This document shows positions 1-14,163 of a stretch of 21,831 nt of DNA, in pieces. The number at the start of each line of letters is the position of its first letter. The first letter of the stretch is position 1. A program made the position numbers and the translations under genes. The stretch covers positions 1-21,831 of the forward strand of contig JAHAWU010000050.1 of assembly GCA_018383815.1 (NCBI GenBank), read 5' to 3'. Below the pieces are notes generated by a model that had not been told where the DNA came from, ran no database searches, and worked only from the letters and a program-made list of their open reading frames with translations. The DNA comes from Candidatus Jordarchaeia archaeon (lineage in GTDB: Archaea > Asgardarchaeota > Jordiarchaeia > Jordiarchaeales > Jordiarchaeaceae).

Positions 1-1159
1 TAATTTTAGCAATATCGTTACATTCGGGTATAGTATAGATTTTGCGGTCAGGATACATTTCACGAATCCTGTCTAAGTTCTCTTCAATTGTGCAAGGCCC
101 AACGATTAAAATGTCCCCGGGCAGAAGATTGTCCAATTCGTCCCCACCAACACCCTTACCTGCAATAATGTTAAAGCCGCCCTCACCTTTAAAATCGTAC
201 CAGAAATAGAGAAGGGCCAATAACGTGTTTCCATAGCAGCCCTCAACACAGGCTATCTCCCTCCCTTTAACGAAGCGAACCTCGCTGGGGCAGTCCCTAC
301 ATGGGGTACATGGGAAACGCTCCCTGAAACGCGAAATATCACCAATAACCTCAATATCTTTAAGGTCACCGATCCCTAATCCCTGCTCCGCGGCAAGCTT
401 AACGTGTTTCACCTCTTCAACATCATAACCCAGGATTTTCGCACCTACCGTATCACATGCGACCACATCATTTGAAGCAATAAAAATATTCATTGGAACC
501 ACACACTCCGAAAGCAAAGTCTCAGGCGGAAAATGGCCAAACCTGGTGGCAGTAATACCCTCAATGATTGTAAAATCCGGACGAATAAACTTTACAGTAT
601 CCACAAGCTTCTGATGCAACTTATAATTATGATTCACAAGCTTATCACAATCATAAAGAAGCCCCTGAAAACACTTAATGCCCAGCGTAACAGTAGTCTC
701 CCAATGCGTCTTAAGCTTAGGAATATTAATCAGAACATTTCTACCCTTCCTACGAATAAGAGTATCGTATAAAATCTCAGGAAACTTAGTAGGAATACGC
801 TCATCACCCATCTCCACCATAACCGGCTTCTGCTCATCCAAGTACAGATTCTCACCCCCATTTGCCTCAACTATTCTAGCAATACCACTGACCTCAGCAA
901 CCATACGAGTAAAATTTCCCTGAGTAGAATTCTCCATCACGTAAACCTTATCCCCTGTAAATTCCCTAGCAATACTAATCATCTCACCTATAACCCTAGG
1001 ATCAGTGTACATTACCTTACCAAAGTGGACACCATTATACTTTATGAAAACCTTAGAATCAGGCTTAACAAACTCCTCAACGCCACCAAAAACATCAAAA
1101 ACTCGAAACAAAGACTCTCTAATATCCGAAACATCCTCAACAACAACCCTAGCCTTCAC
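1..1159 (-). CDS. DUF362 domain-containing protein; the C-terminal end runs off the window and the gene is absent from the supplied ORF track
   Basis: Hand translation of the minus strand gives one open frame from a GTG at 1159 to the window edge. A GGTGG Shine-Dalgarno-like motif lies a few nt upstream of the GTG. The translation reads VKARVVVEDVSDIRESLFRVF..VFIKYNGVHF..INIPKLKTHWETTVTLGIKCFQG..IIEGITATRFG..IFIASNDVVACDTVGAKILGYD..CTPCRDCP... These blocks follow the conserved DUF362 pattern. The + strand ORFs listed at 533-1259 are antisense artefacts of this gene. Confidence 0.8.
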   Translation of the reverse strand, partial: MKARVVVEDVSDIRESLFRVFDVFGGVEEFVKPDSKVFIKYNGVHFGKVMYTDPRVIGEMISIAREFTGDKVYVMENSTQGNFTRMVAEVSGIARIVEANGGENLYLDEQKPVMVEMGDERIPTKFPEILYDTLIRRKGRNVLINIPKLKTHWETTVTLGIKCFQGLLYDCDKLVNHNYKLHQKLVDTVKFIRPDFTIIEGITATRFGHFPPETLLSECVVPMNIFIASNDVVACDTVGAKILGYDVEEVKHVKLAAEQGLGIGDLKDIEVIGDISRFRERFPCTPCRDCPSEVRFVKGREIACVEGCYGNTLLALLYFWYDFKGEGGFNIIAGKGVGGDELDNLLPGDILIVGPCTIEENLDRIREMYPDRKIYTIPECNDIAKI

Positions 1160-1355
1160 AAAACCACCCCGAAAACAAATTACCAACAAATACGAGATGC
1201 TAATACAACTTGCTTCACAACCAATAAATAGTTATTTGCCAAGACTCGAAACCATCTAGATTCCAAAAATTTTCATCCACCTCTGAAGGGAAACACTACA
1301 ACATCCAAATTTTAAATAATCAAGGTTACCAACTCTCAAGGAGTCAAATTGCTTC

Positions 1356-1931
1356 CTATTTAGGAATCAGACCCTCTCTAGACCAACCCTTATCGTAGGG
1401 AGTGCCAAAGAACCATTTAACCCCCCGCGATTTTATAAACCACCTTCAATTCCTTTTCTCGTACTCATCATAATATATTCCCGCAAGCCAACCAGCCACA
1501 TTGTTCTCCCTTTAGTACTTGGAACCAAAAAAATACCACTTACCCGTAGCCCTATCCTCACCATCAATCTCTATCAAAGGGTTAAGCAACATATGGATGA
1601 TGTAGAATGGTTCGGTTATGCCTTAAAAAGGGGAGTTTTTAAAGCTCCTTTCGCAATTTAGAGCCTTATGAGGGAAACGGAACCGAATGAATCTACATCG
1701 CCCAACATATGCACACTAAATGAAAGCACCCCAAAAACCACTTTTACATAAAAGTTCCTTATCTCTTACCGACCCTTAGCACTACCAAAAGATCCAAAAT
1801 CAACAAAAGCATCCCTCAGCAAACACCTCCCTCAAAAGCAAATGCTGACACGAAGAATCCTCATAATATCCATCCACATAATAGCAATACTTAGCCTTCA
1901 ACTTTTTAATTTCCTCAACATCCTCCAACAT
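1356..1931 (-). pseudogene. Decayed SnoaL-like / NTF2-fold (SnoaL_4-type) gene
   Basis: The minus strand has an ATG at 1931 preceded by GGGGTG. It reads MLEDVEEIKKLKAKYCYYVDGYYEDSSCQHLLLREVFAE, then needs a frameshift (extra G in GAGGGAT) to continue DAFVDFGSFGSAKGR*EIRNFYVKVVFGVLSFSVHML. A 107-bp insertion follows, then LNPLIEIDGEDRATGKWYFFGSKY*RENNVAGWLAGIYYDEYEKRN*..WFFGTPYDKGWSREGLIPK*. In total there is at least one frameshift, three in-frame stops and one insertion. No ORF of 60 aa or more is called here. Confidence 0.7.
1596..1702. mobile_element. MITE-like non-autonomous insertion (107 bp) with 22-nt imperfect terminal inverted repeats and a 9-bp target-site duplication
   Basis: The left end is gatgatgtagaatggttcggtt (1596-1617). 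The reverse complement of the right end (1681-1702) is ggcgatgtagattcattcggtt, which matches at 17 of 22 positions. The direct repeat caacatatg flanks both sides (1587-1595 and 1703-1711). Removing the element plus one repeat copy restores the reading ..SVHMLLNPLIEIDG.. of the host pseudogene. Confidence 0.6.
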
Positions 1932-2068
1932 AACAAACACCCCAAAAATTCCAGACAGATTAAATCACCTAATAATTAATTTTCACACTATTTTAAATTA
2001 TCTAAAAATAGAAAATTAAATTAAGAACCAAAACACTCTAAACAATAACCAAAAAAGGAGGCATAAAA

Positions 2069-2497
2069 GTGAAAAAAGCACCAAGCGAAAAGGTAACAGA
2101 CTACAAAATCAGCCAACTAGGAATAGTGGTAAAGGACATGGAGAAAACAGCAAAATTCCTCGAAAAACTAGGAATAGGACCGTTCCCCACAATAGAAACA
2201 GAAGTACCAGGTGGCAAAGTGAAAATCGGCATATACCAGCAGGGAGACCTACAAATCGAGCTAATCCAACCCCTAGAAGGAGACACAATACACTCCAAAT
2301 GGCTCAAACAAAAAGGAGAAGGACTCCACCACGTAAGCTACCACTGCAAAGACATTGAAAAAGAACTAAAAAACCTACAAAAAATTGGAGTAAAAATCCT
2401 CGACAGAGGAGAAATCTTCGGAGTAAAATGGGCCTACCTTGACACACAAGAAAAATGCGGATTCATACTAGAACTAGGACAATGGCCAGAAGGATAA
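2069..2497 (+). CDS. VOC (glyoxalase/dioxygenase) family protein, methylmalonyl-CoA epimerase-like
   Basis: GTG start with AAGGAGG 7 nt upstream. The pattern LGIVVKDMEKTAKFLEKLG..IELIQPLEGDTIHSKWLKQKGEGLHHVSYHCKDIEKEL..GVKIL..GFILEL is typical of MCE-type VOC proteins. Confidence 0.75.
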   Translation: MKKAPSEKVTDYKISQLGIVVKDMEKTAKFLEKLGIGPFPTIETEVPGGKVKIGIYQQGDLQIELIQPLEGDTIHSKWLKQKGEGLHHVSYHCKDIEKELKNLQKIGVKILDRGEIFGVKWAYLDTQEKCGFILELGQWPEG

Positions 2498-2614
2498 AAA
2501 ACTAAACAATTAAAAACACACATATTCAGCTTCAACAAAAGTTGCACACAATTCTTAAATAATAACTCAGTAGATAACCAACCTAACAACACACCACCCT
2601 CAAGGGCGACAAGA

Positions 2615-5446
2615 ATGGACTGGAACCAAATTGAAAAAAAATGGCAACAAAGATGGAAACAGGCCAAAATATTCCAAGCAGACCCCCCACCAAAAAATAA
2701 AAGAAAAGCTAAACATTCAAAAGGAAAACTATTTACATTCCCCTACGCATATATGAACGGACCGTTACATATAGGTCATGCCTTAACCTGTTTGCGTGTG
2801 GATATTTACGCTCGTTTTAAGCGTATGCAGGGTTATAATGTGTTGTTCCCGTTTGCTTTTCATTATACGGGGGAGCCCCTAGTGGGTGTAGCTAAGCGTA
2901 TTGCGGAGGGTGATCAGAAGCAGATTGAAATTTTGGTTAGGAGTGGTGTGCCACGAGAAGAGATTAGCAAATTTACGGATCCTAAATATATTGGTGATTA
3001 TTATCGGGCTGAGGCTATCGAAACGGTGGATCGGATTGGTTTTAGTGTTGATTGGCGGCGTCAGTTTACTACTGTTGATCCTCCTTATAATAAGTTTATT
3101 GAGTGGCAGTATTGGACTTTGCGTGATAAGGGTTATGTGGTTTTGGGTAGTCATCCGGTGGTTTGGTGTCCTCGTTGTTTGTCGCCTACTGGTGATCATG
3201 ATCGCTTGGTGGGTGAGGGTGTTTCTCCCATTGAGTATACTTTGTTGAAGTTTGAGTGTGATGGTGCTTTTCTTATGGCTGCTACTTTGCGTCCGGAGAC
3301 TGTTTTTGGTGTTACGAATATGTGGTTGAATCCGGATGCGGTTTATGTTCGGGCGCGTGTTGATGGTGAGGTGTGGATTGTTAGTAGGGAGGCTGTTCAG
3401 AAGCTTAGGGATCAGTTGCATGTGGTTGAGGTTTTGGAGGAGTTTGAAGGGCGTAGGCTTATTGGTAAGTTTTGCAGGAATGTGGTGGTGGGTAGTGAGG
3501 TTCCCATTTTGCCTGCTTCTTTTGTTGATCCGGGTAATGCTTCAGGTGTGGTTATGAGTGTTCCGAGTCATGCTCCTTTTGACTGGGCAGCTATTGCTGA
3601 TTTGCGTAGGAATCCTGAGGTTCTTAGGGAGTACGGTATTGATCCAAGTATTGTTATGGGGTTGGAGCCCATTTCTTTGATTGAGACTGAGGGGTTTGGT
3701 GAGCATCCCGCCGTAGATCTTGTTGAGGCGGCGGGTATTAAGAGTCAGAAGGATAAGCGGTTGGAGGATATCACTAAGGAGGTTTATCGGAGGGAGTTTC
3801 ATAAGGGTATTCTCAAAAAGGTCACTGGTAGATATGCGGGGCGGGGTGTTGCCGAAGTTAAGAAGGAGTTAATTGCAGATTTTGTGAGTGAGGGTAAGGC
3901 GAGTAGTTTGTGGGAGACTGCGGAGCCTGTGGTTTGCCGTTGTAATACGCGTACTATTGTGAAGATTTTGGAGAATCAGTGGTTTTTGAAGTATAGTGAT
4001 CCGGAGTGGAAGGCGCGGGTTAGAGAGCTTTTGGAGCGTATGATAATTGTTCCGGATGAGGCTAGGAGTGCTTTTGAGTATACTGTGGATTGGTTGGAGG
4101 ATAAGGCTTGTGTGCGGCGGAGTGGCTTGGGTACTAGGCTTCCTTGGGATCCAGATTGGATTGTGGAGACTTTGTCGGATTCTACGGTTTATATGGCTTT
4201 TTACACTGTTGCTAAGCACATTTATGGTTTGGGGATTCCGGCGGAGAAGTTGACTCGTGAAGTTTTTGATTATATTTTTTTGGGTAAAGGAAATGTGGAG
4301 GAGGTTGCTGGGAGGAGTGGTTTGGATGAAGAGTTGTTAGAGGATATGAGGGATGAGTTTGAGTACTGGTATCCTGTCTCTCTTAGGAATTCGGCTAAGG
4401 AGTTGATTTTTAATCACTTGACGTTTTTCTTGTTCCAGCATGTGGCTATTTGGCCGGAGGATAAGTGGCCGCGGATGGTGGGGGCCAACGGTATGATTCA
4501 GATTGAGGGGCAGAAGATGAGTAAGTCGCGGGGAATTTTTATTACTCTTAAGGAGGCTTTGGACCAATATAATGCTGATCCTACTCGTTTTGAGTTGGCG
4601 TATTCGGCTGAGGGATTGGTGGATCCGGATTGGCGGGCTCAGGAGGTTGTGAGTCTCCGTAGACGGTTGGAGTTGCTTTATGATTTTGCTACCAATCTAC
4701 CTGAGACTAAGCCTTTGGATAGGGATATTGATCCCTGGCTTTTGAGTAGGGTTCATAGGCATATTAAGGCGGCTACTGAGTATTATGAGGTTATGAGGAA
4801 TCGCTCTGCTCTTCAGGAGGGATTTTTCGACCTGTGGAATGATATCCGCTGGTATATGAGGCGTACTGAGGAATATTCAGATGTTTTAAGGAAGGCTGTG
4901 GAGACCATGATTCTTCTGGTGTCTCCTGTGACTCCTCATATTTGTGAGGAGATTTGGGAAAGAATTGGCCACAAGAGGTTCATTGTTCAGGAGCCTTGGC
5001 CGACTTATGATGAGAAGTATTTTGATGAGGAGTTGGAGCTTCGGGAGAAACTCATAAGCGACACCATTGAGGATATAAAGGAGATTCTCAAGGTTACCAG
5101 AATTGAGAAGCCTTCCAAGATTACTCTTTTTGTGGCTCAGAGTTGGAAGTACAAGATTTTAGCGGAGTCCTTAAAGAATAGGGAGGATTTGATAAAGAGA
5201 GTTATGGCTGATGCGGAGGTTAAGAAGCAGGGAAAAGATGCTGTGAACTATGCGCAAAAGTTGCTCAAGAATCCTCGCCATGAGATGCTTACTCAGGAAA
5301 TAGAATTTCAGACTTTATCTGAGGCGGCAGAGTTCTTGGCTAAGGAATTTGGAGCTAAAGTTGAGGTTCTGAGGGCTGAGGAGTCGAAACATGAGAAGGC
5401 CAGGATGGCTGAACCATTAAAACCAGGAGTTCTCATCGAAACCTAA
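2615..5446 (+). CDS. leuS: Leucine--tRNA ligase (archaeal/eukaryal type)
   Basis: 943 aa. It has the HIGH motif (PLHIGH), the KMSKS motif (QKMSKSRG), a CP1 editing-domain region and an archaeal-style C-terminal extension. All other ORFs listed between 2879 and 4567 are nested artefacts. Confidence 0.97.
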   Translation: MDWNQIEKKWQQRWKQAKIFQADPPPKNKRKAKHSKGKLFTFPYAYMNGPLHIGHALTCLRVDIYARFKRMQGYNVLFPFAFHYTGEPLVGVAKRIAEGDQKQIEILVRSGVPREEISKFTDPKYIGDYYRAEAIETVDRIGFSVDWRRQFTTVDPPYNKFIEWQYWTLRDKGYVVLGSHPVVWCPRCLSPTGDHDRLVGEGVSPIEYTLLKFECDGAFLMAATLRPETVFGVTNMWLNPDAVYVRARVDGEVWIVSREAVQKLRDQLHVVEVLEEFEGRRLIGKFCRNVVVGSEVPILPASFVDPGNASGVVMSVPSHAPFDWAAIADLRRNPEVLREYGIDPSIVMGLEPISLIETEGFGEHPAVDLVEAAGIKSQKDKRLEDITKEVYRREFHKGILKKVTGRYAGRGVAEVKKELIADFVSEGKASSLWETAEPVVCRCNTRTIVKILENQWFLKYSDPEWKARVRELLERMIIVPDEARSAFEYTVDWLEDKACVRRSGLGTRLPWDPDWIVETLSDSTVYMAFYTVAKHIYGLGIPAEKLTREVFDYIFLGKGNVEEVAGRSGLDEELLEDMRDEFEYWYPVSLRNSAKELIFNHLTFFLFQHVAIWPEDKWPRMVGANGMIQIEGQKMSKSRGIFITLKEALDQYNADPTRFELAYSAEGLVDPDWRAQEVVSLRRRLELLYDFATNLPETKPLDRDIDPWLLSRVHRHIKAATEYYEVMRNRSALQEGFFDLWNDIRWYMRRTEEYSDVLRKAVETMILLVSPVTPHICEEIWERIGHKRFIVQEPWPTYDEKYFDEELELREKLISDTIEDIKEILKVTRIEKPSKITLFVAQSWKYKILAESLKNREDLIKRVMADAEVKKQGKDAVNYAQKLLKNPRHEMLTQEIEFQTLSEAAEFLAKEFGAKVEVLRAEESKHEKARMAEPLKPGVLIET

Positions 5447-5448
5447 TG

Positions 5449-5516
5449 TTTTTGTGTAGATAGTGTGTTGTGATCTATTTTTACCTAGTGGGAGGAGACG
5501 CGGGTTTTTATTTTTG
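5449..5516. terminator. T-run terminator region shared by convergent leuS and serS
   Basis: A TGTTTTTG run lies directly after the leuS stop, and GGGTTTTTATTTTTGGG lies at 5502-5518. Archaeal termination typically uses oligo-T runs. Confidence 0.35.
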
Positions 5517-5521
5517 GGTTC

Positions 5522-7084
5522 CTATGGCCAAGTTACTGTTTTGGGGACTTCGGGTAATTTTTCGCCAATGTATTTTTTGATTTTTGGGGGCCAGTCGTCA
5601 TAGTTGAATCCGTGTCTTATTAGGGTTACGTATGCGTAGCGAGATGGGCCCATTCCTACGCATCCGGTGTATACTGTTTTGCGGGTTTTGTCTCGGAAGT
5701 GGAATCTTTTTGCGTAAAAGTCAGTGTGTACGTGGAAGCTGGAGATTTCTAGTTCGGCTTCGGGTCTACTTTTGGTTTCGAAGGGGAGTATTACGGTGAG
5801 GTCGTAGGTTTTCACGAATTCTTCCTCTTTATGTTCTTCGGCGATTCCGGCGTGTTCAAGGTATACGGCGGTGGTTGCGTCTATTCGGTATTCTAGGTCC
5901 AAGTCTTTGTCTATCATGGTTTTAGCTTTTTCGAGTATTTGGTCTCTTATTTCTATGCATTTTTGGGGTGGTGCCATGTATACGAATTCTATTCTGTGGA
6001 ACTCGTTTAGGCGTTCTAGGCCTTTTAGTCCTCCCCCTTCCCACCTCCAGGTGGGTCCATTTTTGTCGTAGAATTTTATGGGGTTTTTCTCAAGTTCTTC
6101 TACGTCTACTATTTCTTGGGCGAATAGTTCGTAGAAGGGTTCACATTGGGCGTATGCTAATCCAAACATGGGGGGGCGGAGTTTTTTCTGGAGTAATTCC
6201 ACGGGAGGAGTGCCAGTTATTTCCACGTAGTCTAGTATTTCCTCGAATTCCTTGGGGTCTCGGGATATTGGGGGACAGGCCCATATTATCTCATTTGCTA
6301 TTCCGAAGTGCCCCTTTTTCATCTCAACTTCTAGTGGAATTAGTCGGGGAAGCATAACTTCTTGGAAGCCTAGGGGCTTTGCGATGTCATCAATGATTAT
6401 GTTTTCTATGGCTCTGATAAGAGCAGCATAGGGGGGCAGTATCTGCCATATGCCCGCTCCCGGGAACTCTTTAACCCATCCTAATTTAACCGCAGCTTCG
6501 GTGGGGTCTTCTCTTAACTTGTATTTTTCCAGGCCTTTGTTGCTTCTTTCAACGGTGCGTGTGTACTCCGCTTTTCCGTGAACATATTGAGCCGTAATTT
6601 TCTCCTCGAGACGCCGCAGTAGGCGGTCGGGGTAGTTTCTTTTGAGTTCACTCTCATCCATTTCCACCATAGTTATGGTGGCTGTTTTATCCTTGATTTC
6701 TAATTCTTTGGTGAAGGGTAGGGTTACTGGCTCTAGGGGTGTTTTTTCAAGTTGGGTTTCAATTCTGTACTTGGTGGCGACAGATTTCCGAATACCCGTG
6801 TGATATTTTGATCCTAGAATATTGGATAGTACGTTGGAAAGTCTGAGTAGTGCGGTGTGTGCTCTAACGTATCTGCCGCTAATTATCTGCAGTTCTATCT
6901 TATCCCCTTTGAGAGACCACTTGGTTACTTGTGCCCCTTCAGATTCTTTTCCTTTGGGCGCTCCTTTTTTAAGTAGTTTTTTGTTGGCTTCCTCGAAGAA
7001 GGCTTCTAATTCGCTTTGGGCTTCCTCAGGAAGAACACCGCTCAATTCGAAATAACCATCCAACTCCAAGTGCAACATTTCCAC
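5522..7084 (-). CDS. serS: Serine--tRNA ligase, atypical methanogen-type (type 2)
   Basis: 520 aa. The N-terminal domain reads ..WSLKGDKIELQIISGRYVRAHTALLRL..NYPDRLLRRLEEKI. The core motifs are AYAQCEPF, NEFHRIEF and TGCVGMGPSRYA. As I recall them, these match the Methanosarcina barkeri / Methanococcus-type SerRS rather than the bacterial-type enzyme. GAGGTGG precedes the ATG. Confidence 0.88.
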   Translation of the reverse strand: MEMLHLELDGYFELSGVLPEEAQSELEAFFEEANKKLLKKGAPKGKESEGAQVTKWSLKGDKIELQIISGRYVRAHTALLRLSNVLSNILGSKYHTGIRKSVATKYRIETQLEKTPLEPVTLPFTKELEIKDKTATITMVEMDESELKRNYPDRLLRRLEEKITAQYVHGKAEYTRTVERSNKGLEKYKLREDPTEAAVKLGWVKEFPGAGIWQILPPYAALIRAIENIIIDDIAKPLGFQEVMLPRLIPLEVEMKKGHFGIANEIIWACPPISRDPKEFEEILDYVEITGTPPVELLQKKLRPPMFGLAYAQCEPFYELFAQEIVDVEELEKNPIKFYDKNGPTWRWEGGGLKGLERLNEFHRIEFVYMAPPQKCIEIRDQILEKAKTMIDKDLDLEYRIDATTAVYLEHAGIAEEHKEEEFVKTYDLTVILPFETKSRPEAELEISSFHVHTDFYAKRFHFRDKTRKTVYTGCVGMGPSRYAYVTLIRHGFNYDDWPPKIKKYIGEKLPEVPKTVTWP

Positions 7085-7185
7085 CTCTTTAGTAGGGGAG
7101 GCCTAGTAGGCTACTATGCTGGAAAAAACGTAGGCTTTGTCGGTGGTGAGTATTTATTCCAAAATCCCTTTTTTTGGAGGTGATT

Positions 7186-7293
7186 ATGGTGTACCCACTT
7201 GAAAAGCGGATGTATAAAAACATTTTGGAAAGTGGTGTTCACACAAACTTGGGCCAACTAAAGATAGAAATCAGTGTCCCTTCCATATTTTAA
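7186..7293 (+). CDS. Possible small protein (35 aa), unverified
   Basis: ATG at 7186 with a strong GGAGGTGA motif ending 2 nt upstream. It translates as MVYPLEKRMYKNILESGVHTNLGQLKIEISVPSIF. I recognise no similarity. Confidence 0.2.
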   Translation: MVYPLEKRMYKNILESGVHTNLGQLKIEISVPSIF

Positions 7294-7294
7294 T

Positions 7295-7738
7295 TTATGG
7301 TAATTCGGTTCCTGGAGTCATAATGGTGTACTTTACAAGTTTAACTCCCTTGAGGGCAAGTATTTCATTGTTGAGTTTTTCGATATCCTCCACTTTTCCC
7401 CTTACTGCCAGAACAATCATACATTCACGTTCATCCAAATGTACATGCATGGAGGAAGCTATCAGTTTTAAATATTTGTGCTGTAGCTCGGTGATTTCAT
7501 CCATTATTCCTGTGGTCTCGTGGTCCAAGATTATGGTTATTGAGCCCACCATATCACCCTTACCCTTGTGCATCCAAGTATAGTTTACTATGAAGTCACG
7601 CATCGCTTTGCGTATCGCGTCAGATCTACCCTGTATTCCGAGAGACTCTGTAACCTTGTCAAATTCTTTAAGTAGGTCTTCTGGGAGGGAAACACTAAAA
7701 CGAATAAATTTCTCTGACTCAACCAAAGTTTTAACCAC
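7295..7738 (-). CDS. nikR: Nickel-responsive transcriptional regulator NikR
   Basis: The N-terminal ribbon-helix-helix reads IRFSVSLPEDLLKEFDKV..RSDAIRKAMRDFI. The C-terminal metal-binding domain has an upstream His (LDHETTG) and the H-x-H-x5-C nickel site (MHVHLDERECM). Confidence 0.85.
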   Translation of the reverse strand: MVKTLVESEKFIRFSVSLPEDLLKEFDKVTESLGIQGRSDAIRKAMRDFIVNYTWMHKGKGDMVGSITIILDHETTGIMDEITELQHKYLKLIASSMHVHLDERECMIVLAVRGKVEDIEKLNNEILALKGVKLVKYTIMTPGTELP

Positions 7739-9729: not shown

Positions 9730-10683
9730 ATGTTCGAGGTGTTTATTTTGCCAGTCGAGAAGCAGTTGGTGATTATTGGCGCTGGGCCAGCGGGATTGAG
9801 CGCTGGAATTTATGCGGCTAGATTTGGTTTAAATGCGGTGATTTTAGAGGCCAAGGTTAGTGGTGGCCAGGCCGCAGAGGCGGCTGTTATTGAGAATTAT
9901 CCTGGTTTTGTTAAAATTAGGGGAATGGAGTTAATGGATGCTATGAGAAAACAAGCTGAGGGATGTGGATGCGACATTCATGATTTAGAACCAGTTAGGA
10001 AAATAGAGAAGAAGGAAAAGCATGTTAGAGTTATATCGGATAGAGAGACATATGTAGCCGATGCAGTTATAATAGCTACGGGGCGTGAGCATGTGAAGCT
10101 TGGGGTGCCAGGAGAAGAGCAGTTTAGTGGTAGGGGAGTTAGTTATTGTGCAACTTGCGATGGACCCTTGTTTAAGGGTAGAAGGGTGCTTGTAGTTGGT
10201 GGTGGCAATACAGCTTGTTCAGAGGCTCTATATTTGAGTGATGTTGCCGGGGAAGTACATTTGGTTCACAGGAGGGATGATTTGCGAGCCGAAGCTTACT
10301 ACAAGAGGGTCTTGACAGAGAAGGGAGTTAAGTTTCACTGGAATACTGAAGTAAAGAGTATTGAGGGGGATAAAATAGTGAAAAAAATTCGACTTGTTAA
10401 TAATAAAACGGGGGAGGAGACTACATTGGATGTGGATGCAGTTTTCATAGCGGTGGGCTACAAGCCAGTTAGTGACTTAGCCAAGGAGGCAGGAGTCAAG
10501 CTGGATGAAGGAGGGTACATAGTAGTAGACAGGGAACAGAGAACAAATATAGAGGGAATTTTTGCGGCGGGAGACATTACCGGAGGCATTTTCCAGATTG
10601 CTACTGCTGTTGGTGAGGGAGCCACGGCGGCGGTAAACGCCTACCTTTACATTAGAGGCGGCTGGTACGGCACATCCAAATGA
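9730..10683 (+). CDS. trxB: Thioredoxin-disulfide reductase
   Basis: It has the FAD motif VIIGAGPAGLSAG, the redox-active CATC (GVSYCATCDG), the NADPH motifs VVGGGNTA and HRRDDLRA, and the C-terminal GIFAAGD. Confidence 0.9.
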   Translation: MFEVFILPVEKQLVIIGAGPAGLSAGIYAARFGLNAVILEAKVSGGQAAEAAVIENYPGFVKIRGMELMDAMRKQAEGCGCDIHDLEPVRKIEKKEKHVRVISDRETYVADAVIIATGREHVKLGVPGEEQFSGRGVSYCATCDGPLFKGRRVLVVGGGNTACSEALYLSDVAGEVHLVHRRDDLRAEAYYKRVLTEKGVKFHWNTEVKSIEGDKIVKKIRLVNNKTGEETTLDVDAVFIAVGYKPVSDLAKEAGVKLDEGGYIVVDREQRTNIEGIFAAGDITGGIFQIATAVGEGATAAVNAYLYIRGGWYGTSK

Positions 10684-13632: not shown

Positions 13633-14163
13633 ATGAGTCAAAGGTTAACGAAAGGACTCATCCAAGTTTACTACGGAACGGGGAAAGGGAAGACTACAGC
13701 TGCGCTGGGATTAGCCTTTAGAGCAACAGGGCACGGGTTCAAAGTACACATGATTCAATTTATGAAGGGAGAAGTGAAATATGGAGAGATAAAAGCCGCT
13801 AAGAACTGGCCCAATCTCACAATAACCCAGTTTGGAAGACCGGAAATAATTGCCGAACCCGAAAAAGTAGACATAGAAGAAGCGAAAAAGGCCTTAGCAC
13901 TGGCAAAAAAGACAATTGAGGATGGGGAGTACGACATCCTCATATTAGACGAGGTAGGCGTGGCCATAGAGATGGAATTAATAAACGTGAGAGACGTAAT
14001 AGAGATATTGAAAGCTAAGCCACCACACCAAGAAGTTATCCTAACAGGCAGATACATGCATCCCAAACTAATGGAGATGGCAGACCTAGTCACCGAGATG
14101 AAAATGATAAAGCATCCCTTTGTCACCCAAGGATTACAAGCCAGAAAGGGCATCGATTTTTAG
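13633..14163 (+). CDS. cobO: Cob(I)yrinic acid a,c-diamide / cob(I)alamin adenosyltransferase (CobA/CobO/BtuR type)
   Basis: GLIQVYYGTGKGKTTAALGLAFRATGHGFKVHMIQFMKG and ILDEVG..LTGR are typical CobA-type motifs. It starts 10 nt after the meaB stop, so the two are probably co-transcribed. Confidence 0.88.
   Translation: MSQRLTKGLIQVYYGTGKGKTTAALGLAFRATGHGFKVHMIQFMKGEVKYGEIKAAKNWPNLTITQFGRPEIIAEPEKVDIEEAKKALALAKKTIEDGEYDILILDEVGVAIEMELINVRDVIEILKAKPPHQEVILTGRYMHPKLMEMADLVTEMKMIKHPFVTQGLQARKGIDF

Follow-up and report, generated by a model that had tools for sequence, protein, structure and literature searches.

The 21,831-nt stretch analysed here (the window) is an entire contig (C2; JAHAWU010000050.1) of a 3.79-Mb metagenome bin from a Candidatus Jordarchaeia archaeon (GCA_018383815.1; 234 contigs, 42% G+C, 5% contamination). 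Its first 7.3 kb carry four genes and an abrupt reversal of strand composition that falls within one of them, the leucyl-tRNA synthetase gene leuS. From left to right, these genes encode a DUF362 protein (positions 2-1189, minus strand, truncated by the contig start; Pfam PF04015, E = 1.3e-29), a VOC/glyoxalase-family protein (2069-2497, plus strand; PF13669, E = 2.6e-20), LeuRS (2615-5446, plus strand; an intact protein of 943 residues with tRNA-synt_1, Anticodon_1 and LeuRS editing domains) and SerRS (serS, 5522-7084, minus strand; PF00587 preceded by a tRNA_bind_4 N-terminal domain, PF18490). The Pfam matches agree with the names given to all four in an initial annotation made from the letters alone. 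Genes were called with a simple home-made scorer based on open reading frames (ORFs) and amino-acid composition (3028 genes, 74% coding), and leuS orthologues were present in 41 of 41 related genomes.

A strand-composition switch within leuS

To the left of the switch, from position 1 to 2787, the plus strand is rich in A+C and the minus strand in G+T. This arm, which is cut by the contig start, holds the DUF362 gene, an 880-bp spacer, the VOC gene and leuS codons 1-58, and has a keto (G+T) skew of -0.19 to -0.30 in 1-kb windows. To the right, from 2795 to 7300, the plus strand is G+T rich through the remainder of leuS and all of serS, with a keto skew of +0.37 at 3-4 kb, +0.15 at 6.5-7.5 kb and 0.02 at 7-8 kb that reaches zero at about 7.3 kb. 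GC skew runs from -0.47 to +0.50 in 500-nt windows, and AT skew has the matching sense. Base counts made by hand for three 60-nt segments in the initial annotation were exact (A28 C19 T9 G4 at 1081-1140, G22 T25 A6 C7 at 3121-3180, and 67% G+T at 5581-5640).

A maximum-likelihood change-point fit to the third positions of the VOC gene and leuS placed the centre, where A/C-ending codons give way to G/T-ending ones, at 2788-2794 (2-lnL support interval). This interval covers leuS codons 58-60, one to three codons past the HIGH motif, and lies within the segment (about 2760-2820) in which an abrupt flip had been reported by eye; the log-likelihood gain was 180, compared with at most 10 in 500 permutations. 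Third-position G+T is 0.17 in the 201 codons to the left of the switch (0.28 in leuS codons 1-58) and 0.92 in the 300 codons to its right, falling to 0.83 in the leuS codons thereafter. Variable positions go from ~83% A/C to ~92% G/T within two codons.

Plus-strand third-position G+T is 0.24 in the DUF362 gene (minus strand), 0.13 in the VOC gene (plus), 0.82 in leuS (plus) and 0.74 in serS (minus). Because genes of both orientations share one sign within each arm, the bias tracks the DNA strand and not the gene: read on their own coding strands, the DUF362 gene has a third-position G+T of 0.76 and serS one of 0.26, so that serS, like the VOC gene, uses A/C-ending codons. These per-gene values bear out the earlier description of a bias that sits at synonymous positions and disregards gene orientation. 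Non-coding DNA is skewed too.

A cause linked to transcription, whether through R-loops or transcription-coupled repair with divergent transcription from the centre, is highly improbable. The DUF362 gene and most of leuS do have a G+T-rich sense strand, and G-rich non-template strands favour R-loops, but the VOC gene, leuS codons 1-58 and serS show the opposite relation, and the switch falls inside transcription units. In a test for transcription-coupled asymmetry, the sign of the skew did not follow the transcribed strand. Of all arm sites in the genome, 59% fall in genes that have the A+C strand as their sense strand, which also speaks against such a cause.

At fourfold-degenerate sites, the G+T strand of the arms consists of T (0.47-0.49), G (0.27-0.36), A (0.08-0.12) and C (0.07-0.15). 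On this strand G/(A+G) reaches 0.69-0.81, up from 0.37, and T/(C+T) reaches 0.76-0.87, up from 0.51, so that the shift takes place mostly within purines and within pyrimidines. The claim that one strand has lost both C and A holds in this form, as a change mainly along the expected transition axis, for which deamination, as proposed earlier, is a candidate chemistry.

Relative to orthologues from 24 other genomes, the first and second codon positions shift in the same direction as the third. The N-terminal 57 residues of LeuRS have a K+N+P+Q+T+H fraction of 0.48 (0.31-0.35 in orthologues elsewhere), and residues 60-500 a G+V+W+F+C fraction of 0.27 (0.21-0.25), so the proposed change in amino-acid usage across the flip survives comparison with orthologues. 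A skew that ignores gene direction and extends to non-coding DNA and to amino acids behaves like mutation pressure. The proposal that stop codons are depleted was correct only for part of the frames: the overall off-frame frequency (0.059 per codon) is close to the genome mean (0.057), with depletion in two frames (0.007 and 0.034) and enrichment in one. The long nonsense ORFs in this region arise because of the two depleted frames.

Same-direction flips across the genome and its relatives

The leuS flip is found at reference residues 40-59 in six of six genomes of the genus (Freyarchaeia; GTDB class Jordarchaeia), whose LeuRS proteins are 83% to 97% identical to that of the window. One of these is a closed chromosome, CP147778.1, of 3,576,204 bp (described in PMC11291895). 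This conservation at the orthologous locus overturns the suggestion that the flip might mark an inversion or recombination breakpoint peculiar to the present genome. It also refutes an artefact of assembly, binning or sequencing damage, or a mere difference in codon usage between genes, which has next to no probability: the bin is fragmented and partly contaminated, but the same flip recurs in six genomes from separate projects, the closed chromosome included, the reading frames are intact, and the change occurs within a single gene as well as in non-coding DNA. Around the leuS centre, DNA identity per column over 400 nt is 90% in six species, versus 73-76% over the whole locus between more distant species; the low entropy of saturated arms may be enough to explain this difference.

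A genome scan of third positions in 150-codon windows recovered 103 A/C-to-G/T flips and 7 in the opposite direction at a step of ≥0.8, and 40 and 0, respectively, at ≥1.0; these thresholds are arbitrary, and the polarity was the same at every one. Shuffled data gave no flips, and a scan of all positions gave 29 flips versus 1. The polarity is intrinsic, because an A/C-to-G/T step is its own reverse complement: on each side of a centre, the strand that runs 5' to 3' away from it is G+T rich. The leuS flip is among the dozen strongest in the genome. Averaged over strong flips, third-position skew is about -0.59 and +0.66 beside the centre and about 0 by 4 kb on each side, with sharp up-steps and gradual down-steps. 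This decay fits tracts of limited length rather than replichores, and it rules out a sawtooth extending to the neighbouring flip (an N-domain). The leuS switch is one of ~100 local flips in the same direction, each two-armed and fading in ~4 kb, and is itself the centre of a local two-armed mutational footprint.

The closed relative was analysed over a 2.38-Mb arc (66% of the chromosome), along which 41 up-flips and 5 down-flips (17 and 0 among strong ones) are scattered with a median spacing of 39 kb. For the 24 flips of the present genome that could be tested against this arc, the step at the orthologous codon exceeded 0.3 in 58% (null, 0.6%) and 0.5 in 38% (null, 0). In actin, whose proteins are 98.7% identical in the two genomes, the switch lies at codon 78 here and near codon 350 in the closed relative; purD has a flip here and none there.

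Outside the genus, no significant leuS change point was found in 24 other Asgard genomes, the sister family included; Jordarchaeum, of that family, has a weaker flip ~5 kb downstream of leuS. In a survey of 74 archaeal leuS loci with 10-kb flanks (those longer than 6 kb, out of 80), the spread of 1-kb keto skew was 0.03-0.07 at most loci and 0.12-0.22 in the genus; besides the genus, Jordarchaeum and one Bathyarchaeia species stood out. A comparable domain occurs in Candidatus Bathycorpusculum fermentans (Bathyarchaeia; WRGM01000146.1, 2700-6143), where leuS switches near codon 20, the next ~450 codons are ~95% G/T at third positions, and the 3' end of the gene turns nearly all A/C; in a congener the bias of the 5' half of leuS is reversed. 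This domain indicates that the phenomenon is not confined to Asgard archaea. We found no published description of such domains in the literature, the nearest being GRINS in bacterial polyketide synthase genes, and for archaea they are apparently unpublished.

A separate observation concerns a contig of Candidatus Nanoarchaeia (DASRUL010000023.1, 1-12852), in which plus-strand third-position G+T is ~0.2 in most genes of both orientations and near 0.5 in a few. This 12-kb pattern is a strong long-range strand skew of a different kind.

Gene families, repeats and replication origins

Called genes contain 85 of the 103 flips; the other 18 are in gaps. Flip-bearing genes have more paralogues than length-matched genes (7.0 versus 3.8; 0/1000 permutations) and are related to one another (39 links versus 6.8 expected; 0/1000 permutations). 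Their mutual relatedness holds in the closed relative (8 links versus 1.3; 4/1000 permutations), where the paralogue excess was not reproduced (107/1000 permutations). Six genes of the ABC ATPase family flip at the Walker B motif, and all belong to one clade (six of eight members, versus none of nine in the other clade); a PaaK-like family has flips at two columns. Recurrence within families is consistent with flips that were inherited as genes duplicated and have been maintained since, or with a determinant peculiar to a subfamily.

The leuS domain is a variant of known strand-asymmetry footprints, GRINS-like in composition and origin-like in polarity. GRINS are duplicated stretches of >500 bp and >80% identity in bacterial, mainly Streptomyces, polyketide synthase clusters, where both signs of skew occur (PMC8256042); their mechanism is unknown as well. 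They share with the flips intense and positively correlated GC and TA skews, an abrupt change, a maximum at third positions, a shift in amino acids (Gly/Val/Trp versus Pro/Thr/His/Gln; PMC8256042), intact genes and an association with gene families. At leuS, mean absolute GC and TA skews exceed 0.15 and are correlated, as in GRINS. The flips differ from GRINS in having strict polarity and paired arms around a fixed centre that cross unrelated genes and spacers, in lacking a duplicate at leuS, and in being archaeal.

Recoding in the manner of GRINS, with skewed repeats spread between paralogues by gene conversion, would account for this signature and for flips that cluster in families and recur at one alignment column. 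We nevertheless regard it as improbable. A blastn search of the entire genome with the 800 nt that surround the leuS switch found no non-self match, and hence no second copy of >500 bp and >80% identity; paralogues that share a flip are just 67-74% identical in DNA; the arms at leuS continue through the unrelated VOC, DUF362 and serS genes; and many strong flips are in single-copy genes.

Replication origins provide the second comparison. Bacterial origins are marked by GC and keto skew, and archaeal origins (oriC) by orc1/cdc6 genes and ORB repeats; upward skew jumps also occur at human origins. The flips share with origin-associated skew the sense of the change, from A+C to G+T, and the joint enrichment of G and T. 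They differ in amplitude, in a range of ~4 kb and in occurring at ~100 sites and, at leuS, in lacking orc1/cdc6 and ORB and in having the centre within coding sequence. The background third-position skew of CP147778.1 is about -0.03 and +0.05, 10-20 times weaker than that of the local arms (~0.6).

The leuS flip shares the polarity of an origin, yet it fails four of five origin criteria. A Cdc6_C profile had no match on the contig, and the three matches of this genome sit on contigs C160 and C143. An ORB-like word taken from the orc1 cluster of the closed relative had no match with at most one mismatch within 16 kb of the flip, and two-mismatch matches were at chance level; both searches agree with the earlier statement that neither feature lies close by. 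There are no ORB repeats flanking an A+T-rich spacer at leuS, whose centre is in coding DNA, and the switch in skew does not persist over a replichore. Over the arc analysed, the cumulative GC skew of CP147778.1 bottoms out once, near 3.5-0.04 Mb, and peaks once, near 1.6-1.85 Mb; leuS, at 1.407 Mb, is away from both. With no Cdc6_C match, no ORB-like word and a position at neither turning point, the flip is not the chromosome's main origin.

That origin appears to be elsewhere. All three orc1/cdc6 genes of CP147778.1 lie at 1.637-1.684 Mb, and the sole cluster of ORB-like words in its genome (three words at 1,639,071-1,640,003, one copy inverted) lies beside orc1 in a 3.2-kb gene-free stretch of 31% G+C (about 1,638,800-1,642,000). 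We take the clustered word to resemble the archaeal ORB core. Coding-strand preference changes from minus to plus at ~1.6 Mb. Together, the orc1 genes, the word cluster in its gene-free stretch and the change in coding strand put the origin at the cumulative-skew maximum, where bacterial convention, like a published skew-based reading, would put the terminus. The origin of CP147778.1 may therefore coincide with the skew maximum, its chromosome-scale skew being inverted, and calls of origin and terminus made from cumulative GC skew by bacterial convention are unsafe in these genomes.

The orc1/ORB site of CP147778.1 has a local 4-kb A/C-to-G/T flip of its own, with a third-position skew of -0.3 before it and +0.6 after it and a GC skew of -0.24 and +0.33, respectively. 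The suggestion that the leuS switch has origin-type polarity is upheld by this match; as evidence for a classical origin at leuS it fails, given the number of flips, the length of their arms and the distance of leuS from the turning points.

It is quite unlikely that the leuS flip is a true bidirectional origin, one of many, at which the leading strand turns G+T rich. Such origins would explain the polarity, the identical local flip at the orc1/ORB site and the combination of sharp up-steps with gradual down-steps. They would, however, number ~100-250 per 3.6-3.8 Mb, and a hundred classical origins is implausible; at leuS the centre would lie inside an essential gene without orc1/cdc6 or an ORB-like word. 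In addition, the arms stop short of the next site, the chromosome has a single skew pattern with turning points elsewhere, and species can differ by hundreds of codons in the position of the switch, examples being actin and purD.

Arms are stronger by 0.13 (95% interval 0.05-0.22) when their G+T strand is also the one enriched in G+T at chromosome scale. This difference is about what plain addition of the global skew gives, and an interaction of the arms with fork direction was rejected.

On contig C32 of genome G000, at 970-1785, a word related to the ORB-like core (TTCCACTGAAAA) occurs seven times with a period of 132-135 bp. These repeats suggest a tandem array, which has matching DNA on contig C207 as well.

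Proposed outward DNA synthesis and its alternatives

The anatomy of the flips calls for a process that is anchored at a point, acts in both directions over a few kilobases, is mirrored between strands and is independent of transcription. Outward DNA synthesis fits all four, and we infer that it is the agent. Our preferred reading, to which we assign a probability of roughly 40%, is that DNA synthesis sets out repeatedly, and outward, from fixed sites of breakage or initiation, and that the exposed strand acquires C-to-T and A-to-G changes.

Under this reading, synthesis would start repeatedly at one site and proceed outward both ways. It might be primed at a break or D-loop, through repair synthesis or recombination-dependent replication, or arise from weak firing of an origin-like kind. 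Either the nascent strand that points outward or its parental counterpart of like sense would stay single-stranded and prone to C-to-T and A-to-G change; alternatively, the outward strand might be copied with low fidelity and made with G·T mispairs. The changes on the outward strand would be mainly of these two kinds and would become fixed. This would produce the observed state, in which the strand running 5' to 3' away from the centre has lost C and A and gained T and G at all weakly constrained positions over 3-4 kb.

Several observations count in favour of outward synthesis. Among them are the strict polarity of the flips, their limited range, a skew that acts like mutation pressure and the shift along the transition axis. 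The same local flip is found at the sole site of the closed relative with independent signs of initiation. In break-induced replication (BIR), the nascent outward strand is left single-stranded and is the main target of damage (PMC9262586; PMC6786661), and the polarity of the flips matches the description given in the first of these reports (PMC9262586). Recombination-dependent initiation is established in archaea (PMC11005403, PMC7776575).

The mutual relatedness of flip-bearing genes and a tendency of tRNA genes to lie within flips may be counted as signs of recombination-prone places. ARAGORN found just 4-9 tRNA genes, since the lineage has multi-intron tRNA genes (PMC11291895). Among five tRNAs found with Rfam in 140 kb of the closed relative, a small sample from loci chosen for flips, three lie in flip gaps and four show a step.

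Mutation clusters at repaired breaks in yeast and tumours are similar in several respects: they form kilobase tracts of changes on one strand that switch at the break, and their target is single-stranded nascent or resected DNA (PMC9262586, PMC6786661). They differ in being single events in experiments or tumours, driven by APOBEC or alkylation (PMC9262586, PMC6786661), whereas the flips represent an evolutionary steady state at fixed sites, affect A as well as C, and occur in an archaeon with no known deaminase. In composition and decay length the flips fit a break-repair tract; synonymous sites are saturated between genomes, and single events are unreadable. The heavy strand of vertebrate mitochondrial DNA reaches a comparable extremity at synonymous sites, with C and A both lost from the strand thought to be single-stranded for longer. 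That skew spans a whole small genome and is graded by single-stranded time in strand-displacement replication, whereas the flips are paired local domains on a 3.8-Mb chromosome.

A number of results weigh against outward synthesis. Chromosome-scale skew at the orc1/ORB site is opposite in sign to the local flip there, so that one asymmetry cannot simply explain both. Breaks followed by deamination of resected 3' tails predict the reverse polarity, and only a version with resynthesis or damage to the nascent strand fits. This genus encodes EndoV, UDG and NucS, as do most of the other Asgard genomes searched; loss of these repair genes is thereby ruled out as the source of the chemistry, and no repair defect explains it. 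K-mer enrichment in the central 80 nt of 70 flips yielded no convincing shared DNA motif and none across families. A link to conserved protein motifs, prompted by centres at HIGH in LeuRS, at Walker B and in actin, RpoA', AtpB and TBP, was rejected (mean within-genus identity percentile 0.47, p = 0.62). Lastly, a two-state likelihood fit to four close species and an outgroup, with few data and a crude model, rejects stationarity (twice the log-likelihood difference, 24, 15 and 8): stationary G+T is 0.76 in the right arm, where the root has 0.94, and 0.42 in the left arm, where the root has 0.155. The fit suggests a process that is now less skewed than the composition of the ancestor, and points to episodic events or fixation bias, not to a steady mutation bias; rare resetting followed by decay would fit, as would fixation bias.

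Fixation bias is the essence of a further alternative, strand-asymmetric biased gene conversion at recombination hot spots, for example by a mismatch endonuclease that acts on G/T-type and not on A/C-type mismatches. Apart from the rejection of stationarity, this alternative draws on parsimony counts of recent single-lineage changes, which oppose the skew (179 keto-to-amino versus 47 reverse in the right arm; 82 amino-to-keto versus 29 reverse in the left arm), and on the fact that NucS, a putative enzyme of this kind, is encoded. It also draws on the relatedness of four close species along the locus (1115-6943 of the window), where the closest pair at 1.1-2.3 kb is not the closest pair at 4.7-6.3 kb; such a change suggests that the species have recombined, the centre itself not being demonstrably involved. 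We consider biased conversion unlikely all the same. Repeated hits at the rare, fast, saturated state bias the parsimony counts, which were replaced by the likelihood fit; NucS is also encoded in Asgard genomes without the leuS flip; and no donor or conversion tract was identified.

Pairs of genes with and without an arm (actin, purD, and leuS in the two Bathycorpusculum species) were tried as a guide to the mutational pathway. The approach was abandoned, as pair counts equalled the product of the two compositions; they are uninformative because fourfold sites are saturated.

A bolder form of outward synthesis would hold that the flips are at least 100 fixed, Orc-free start sites of DNA synthesis (hot spots of recombination-dependent or origin-independent initiation), that the Orc/ORB origin is one member of the set, and that such sites occur in some Bathyarchaeia as well. 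We hold this to be doubtful. If true, it would mean a prokaryotic chromosome with a eukaryote-like density of initiation sites that is legible from sequence. More generally, if the domains record starts of DNA synthesis or break repair, sequence alone would map them in uncultured Asgard archaea. No closer relatives of eukaryotes are known, and the replication and recombination of these archaea are not yet accessible at the bench. There are also practical consequences: a several-fold change of synonymous composition within a gene, with its shift in amino acids, can mislead codon-usage analysis, gene finding (through long spurious ORFs on the antisense strand) and searches for horizontal transfer, as well as phylogenetic models built on stationarity.

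The remainder of the window contains two weaker flips in the same direction. One, at 9735-9738, lies at the start of an ORF at 9730-10683 (log-likelihood gain 41.5; plus-strand third-position G+T from 0.40 to 0.65) and was recovered by the genome scan too; the other, at 14154-14157, takes plus-strand third-position G+T from 0.37 to 0.62. An Rfam search of the window returned zero RNA families, and Pfam also confirmed a NikR gene in it. The protein encoded by serS (5522-7084) is a rare form of SerRS, with the tRNA_bind_4 N-terminal domain (PF18490), that is known from methanogens and is found here in an Asgard archaeon.

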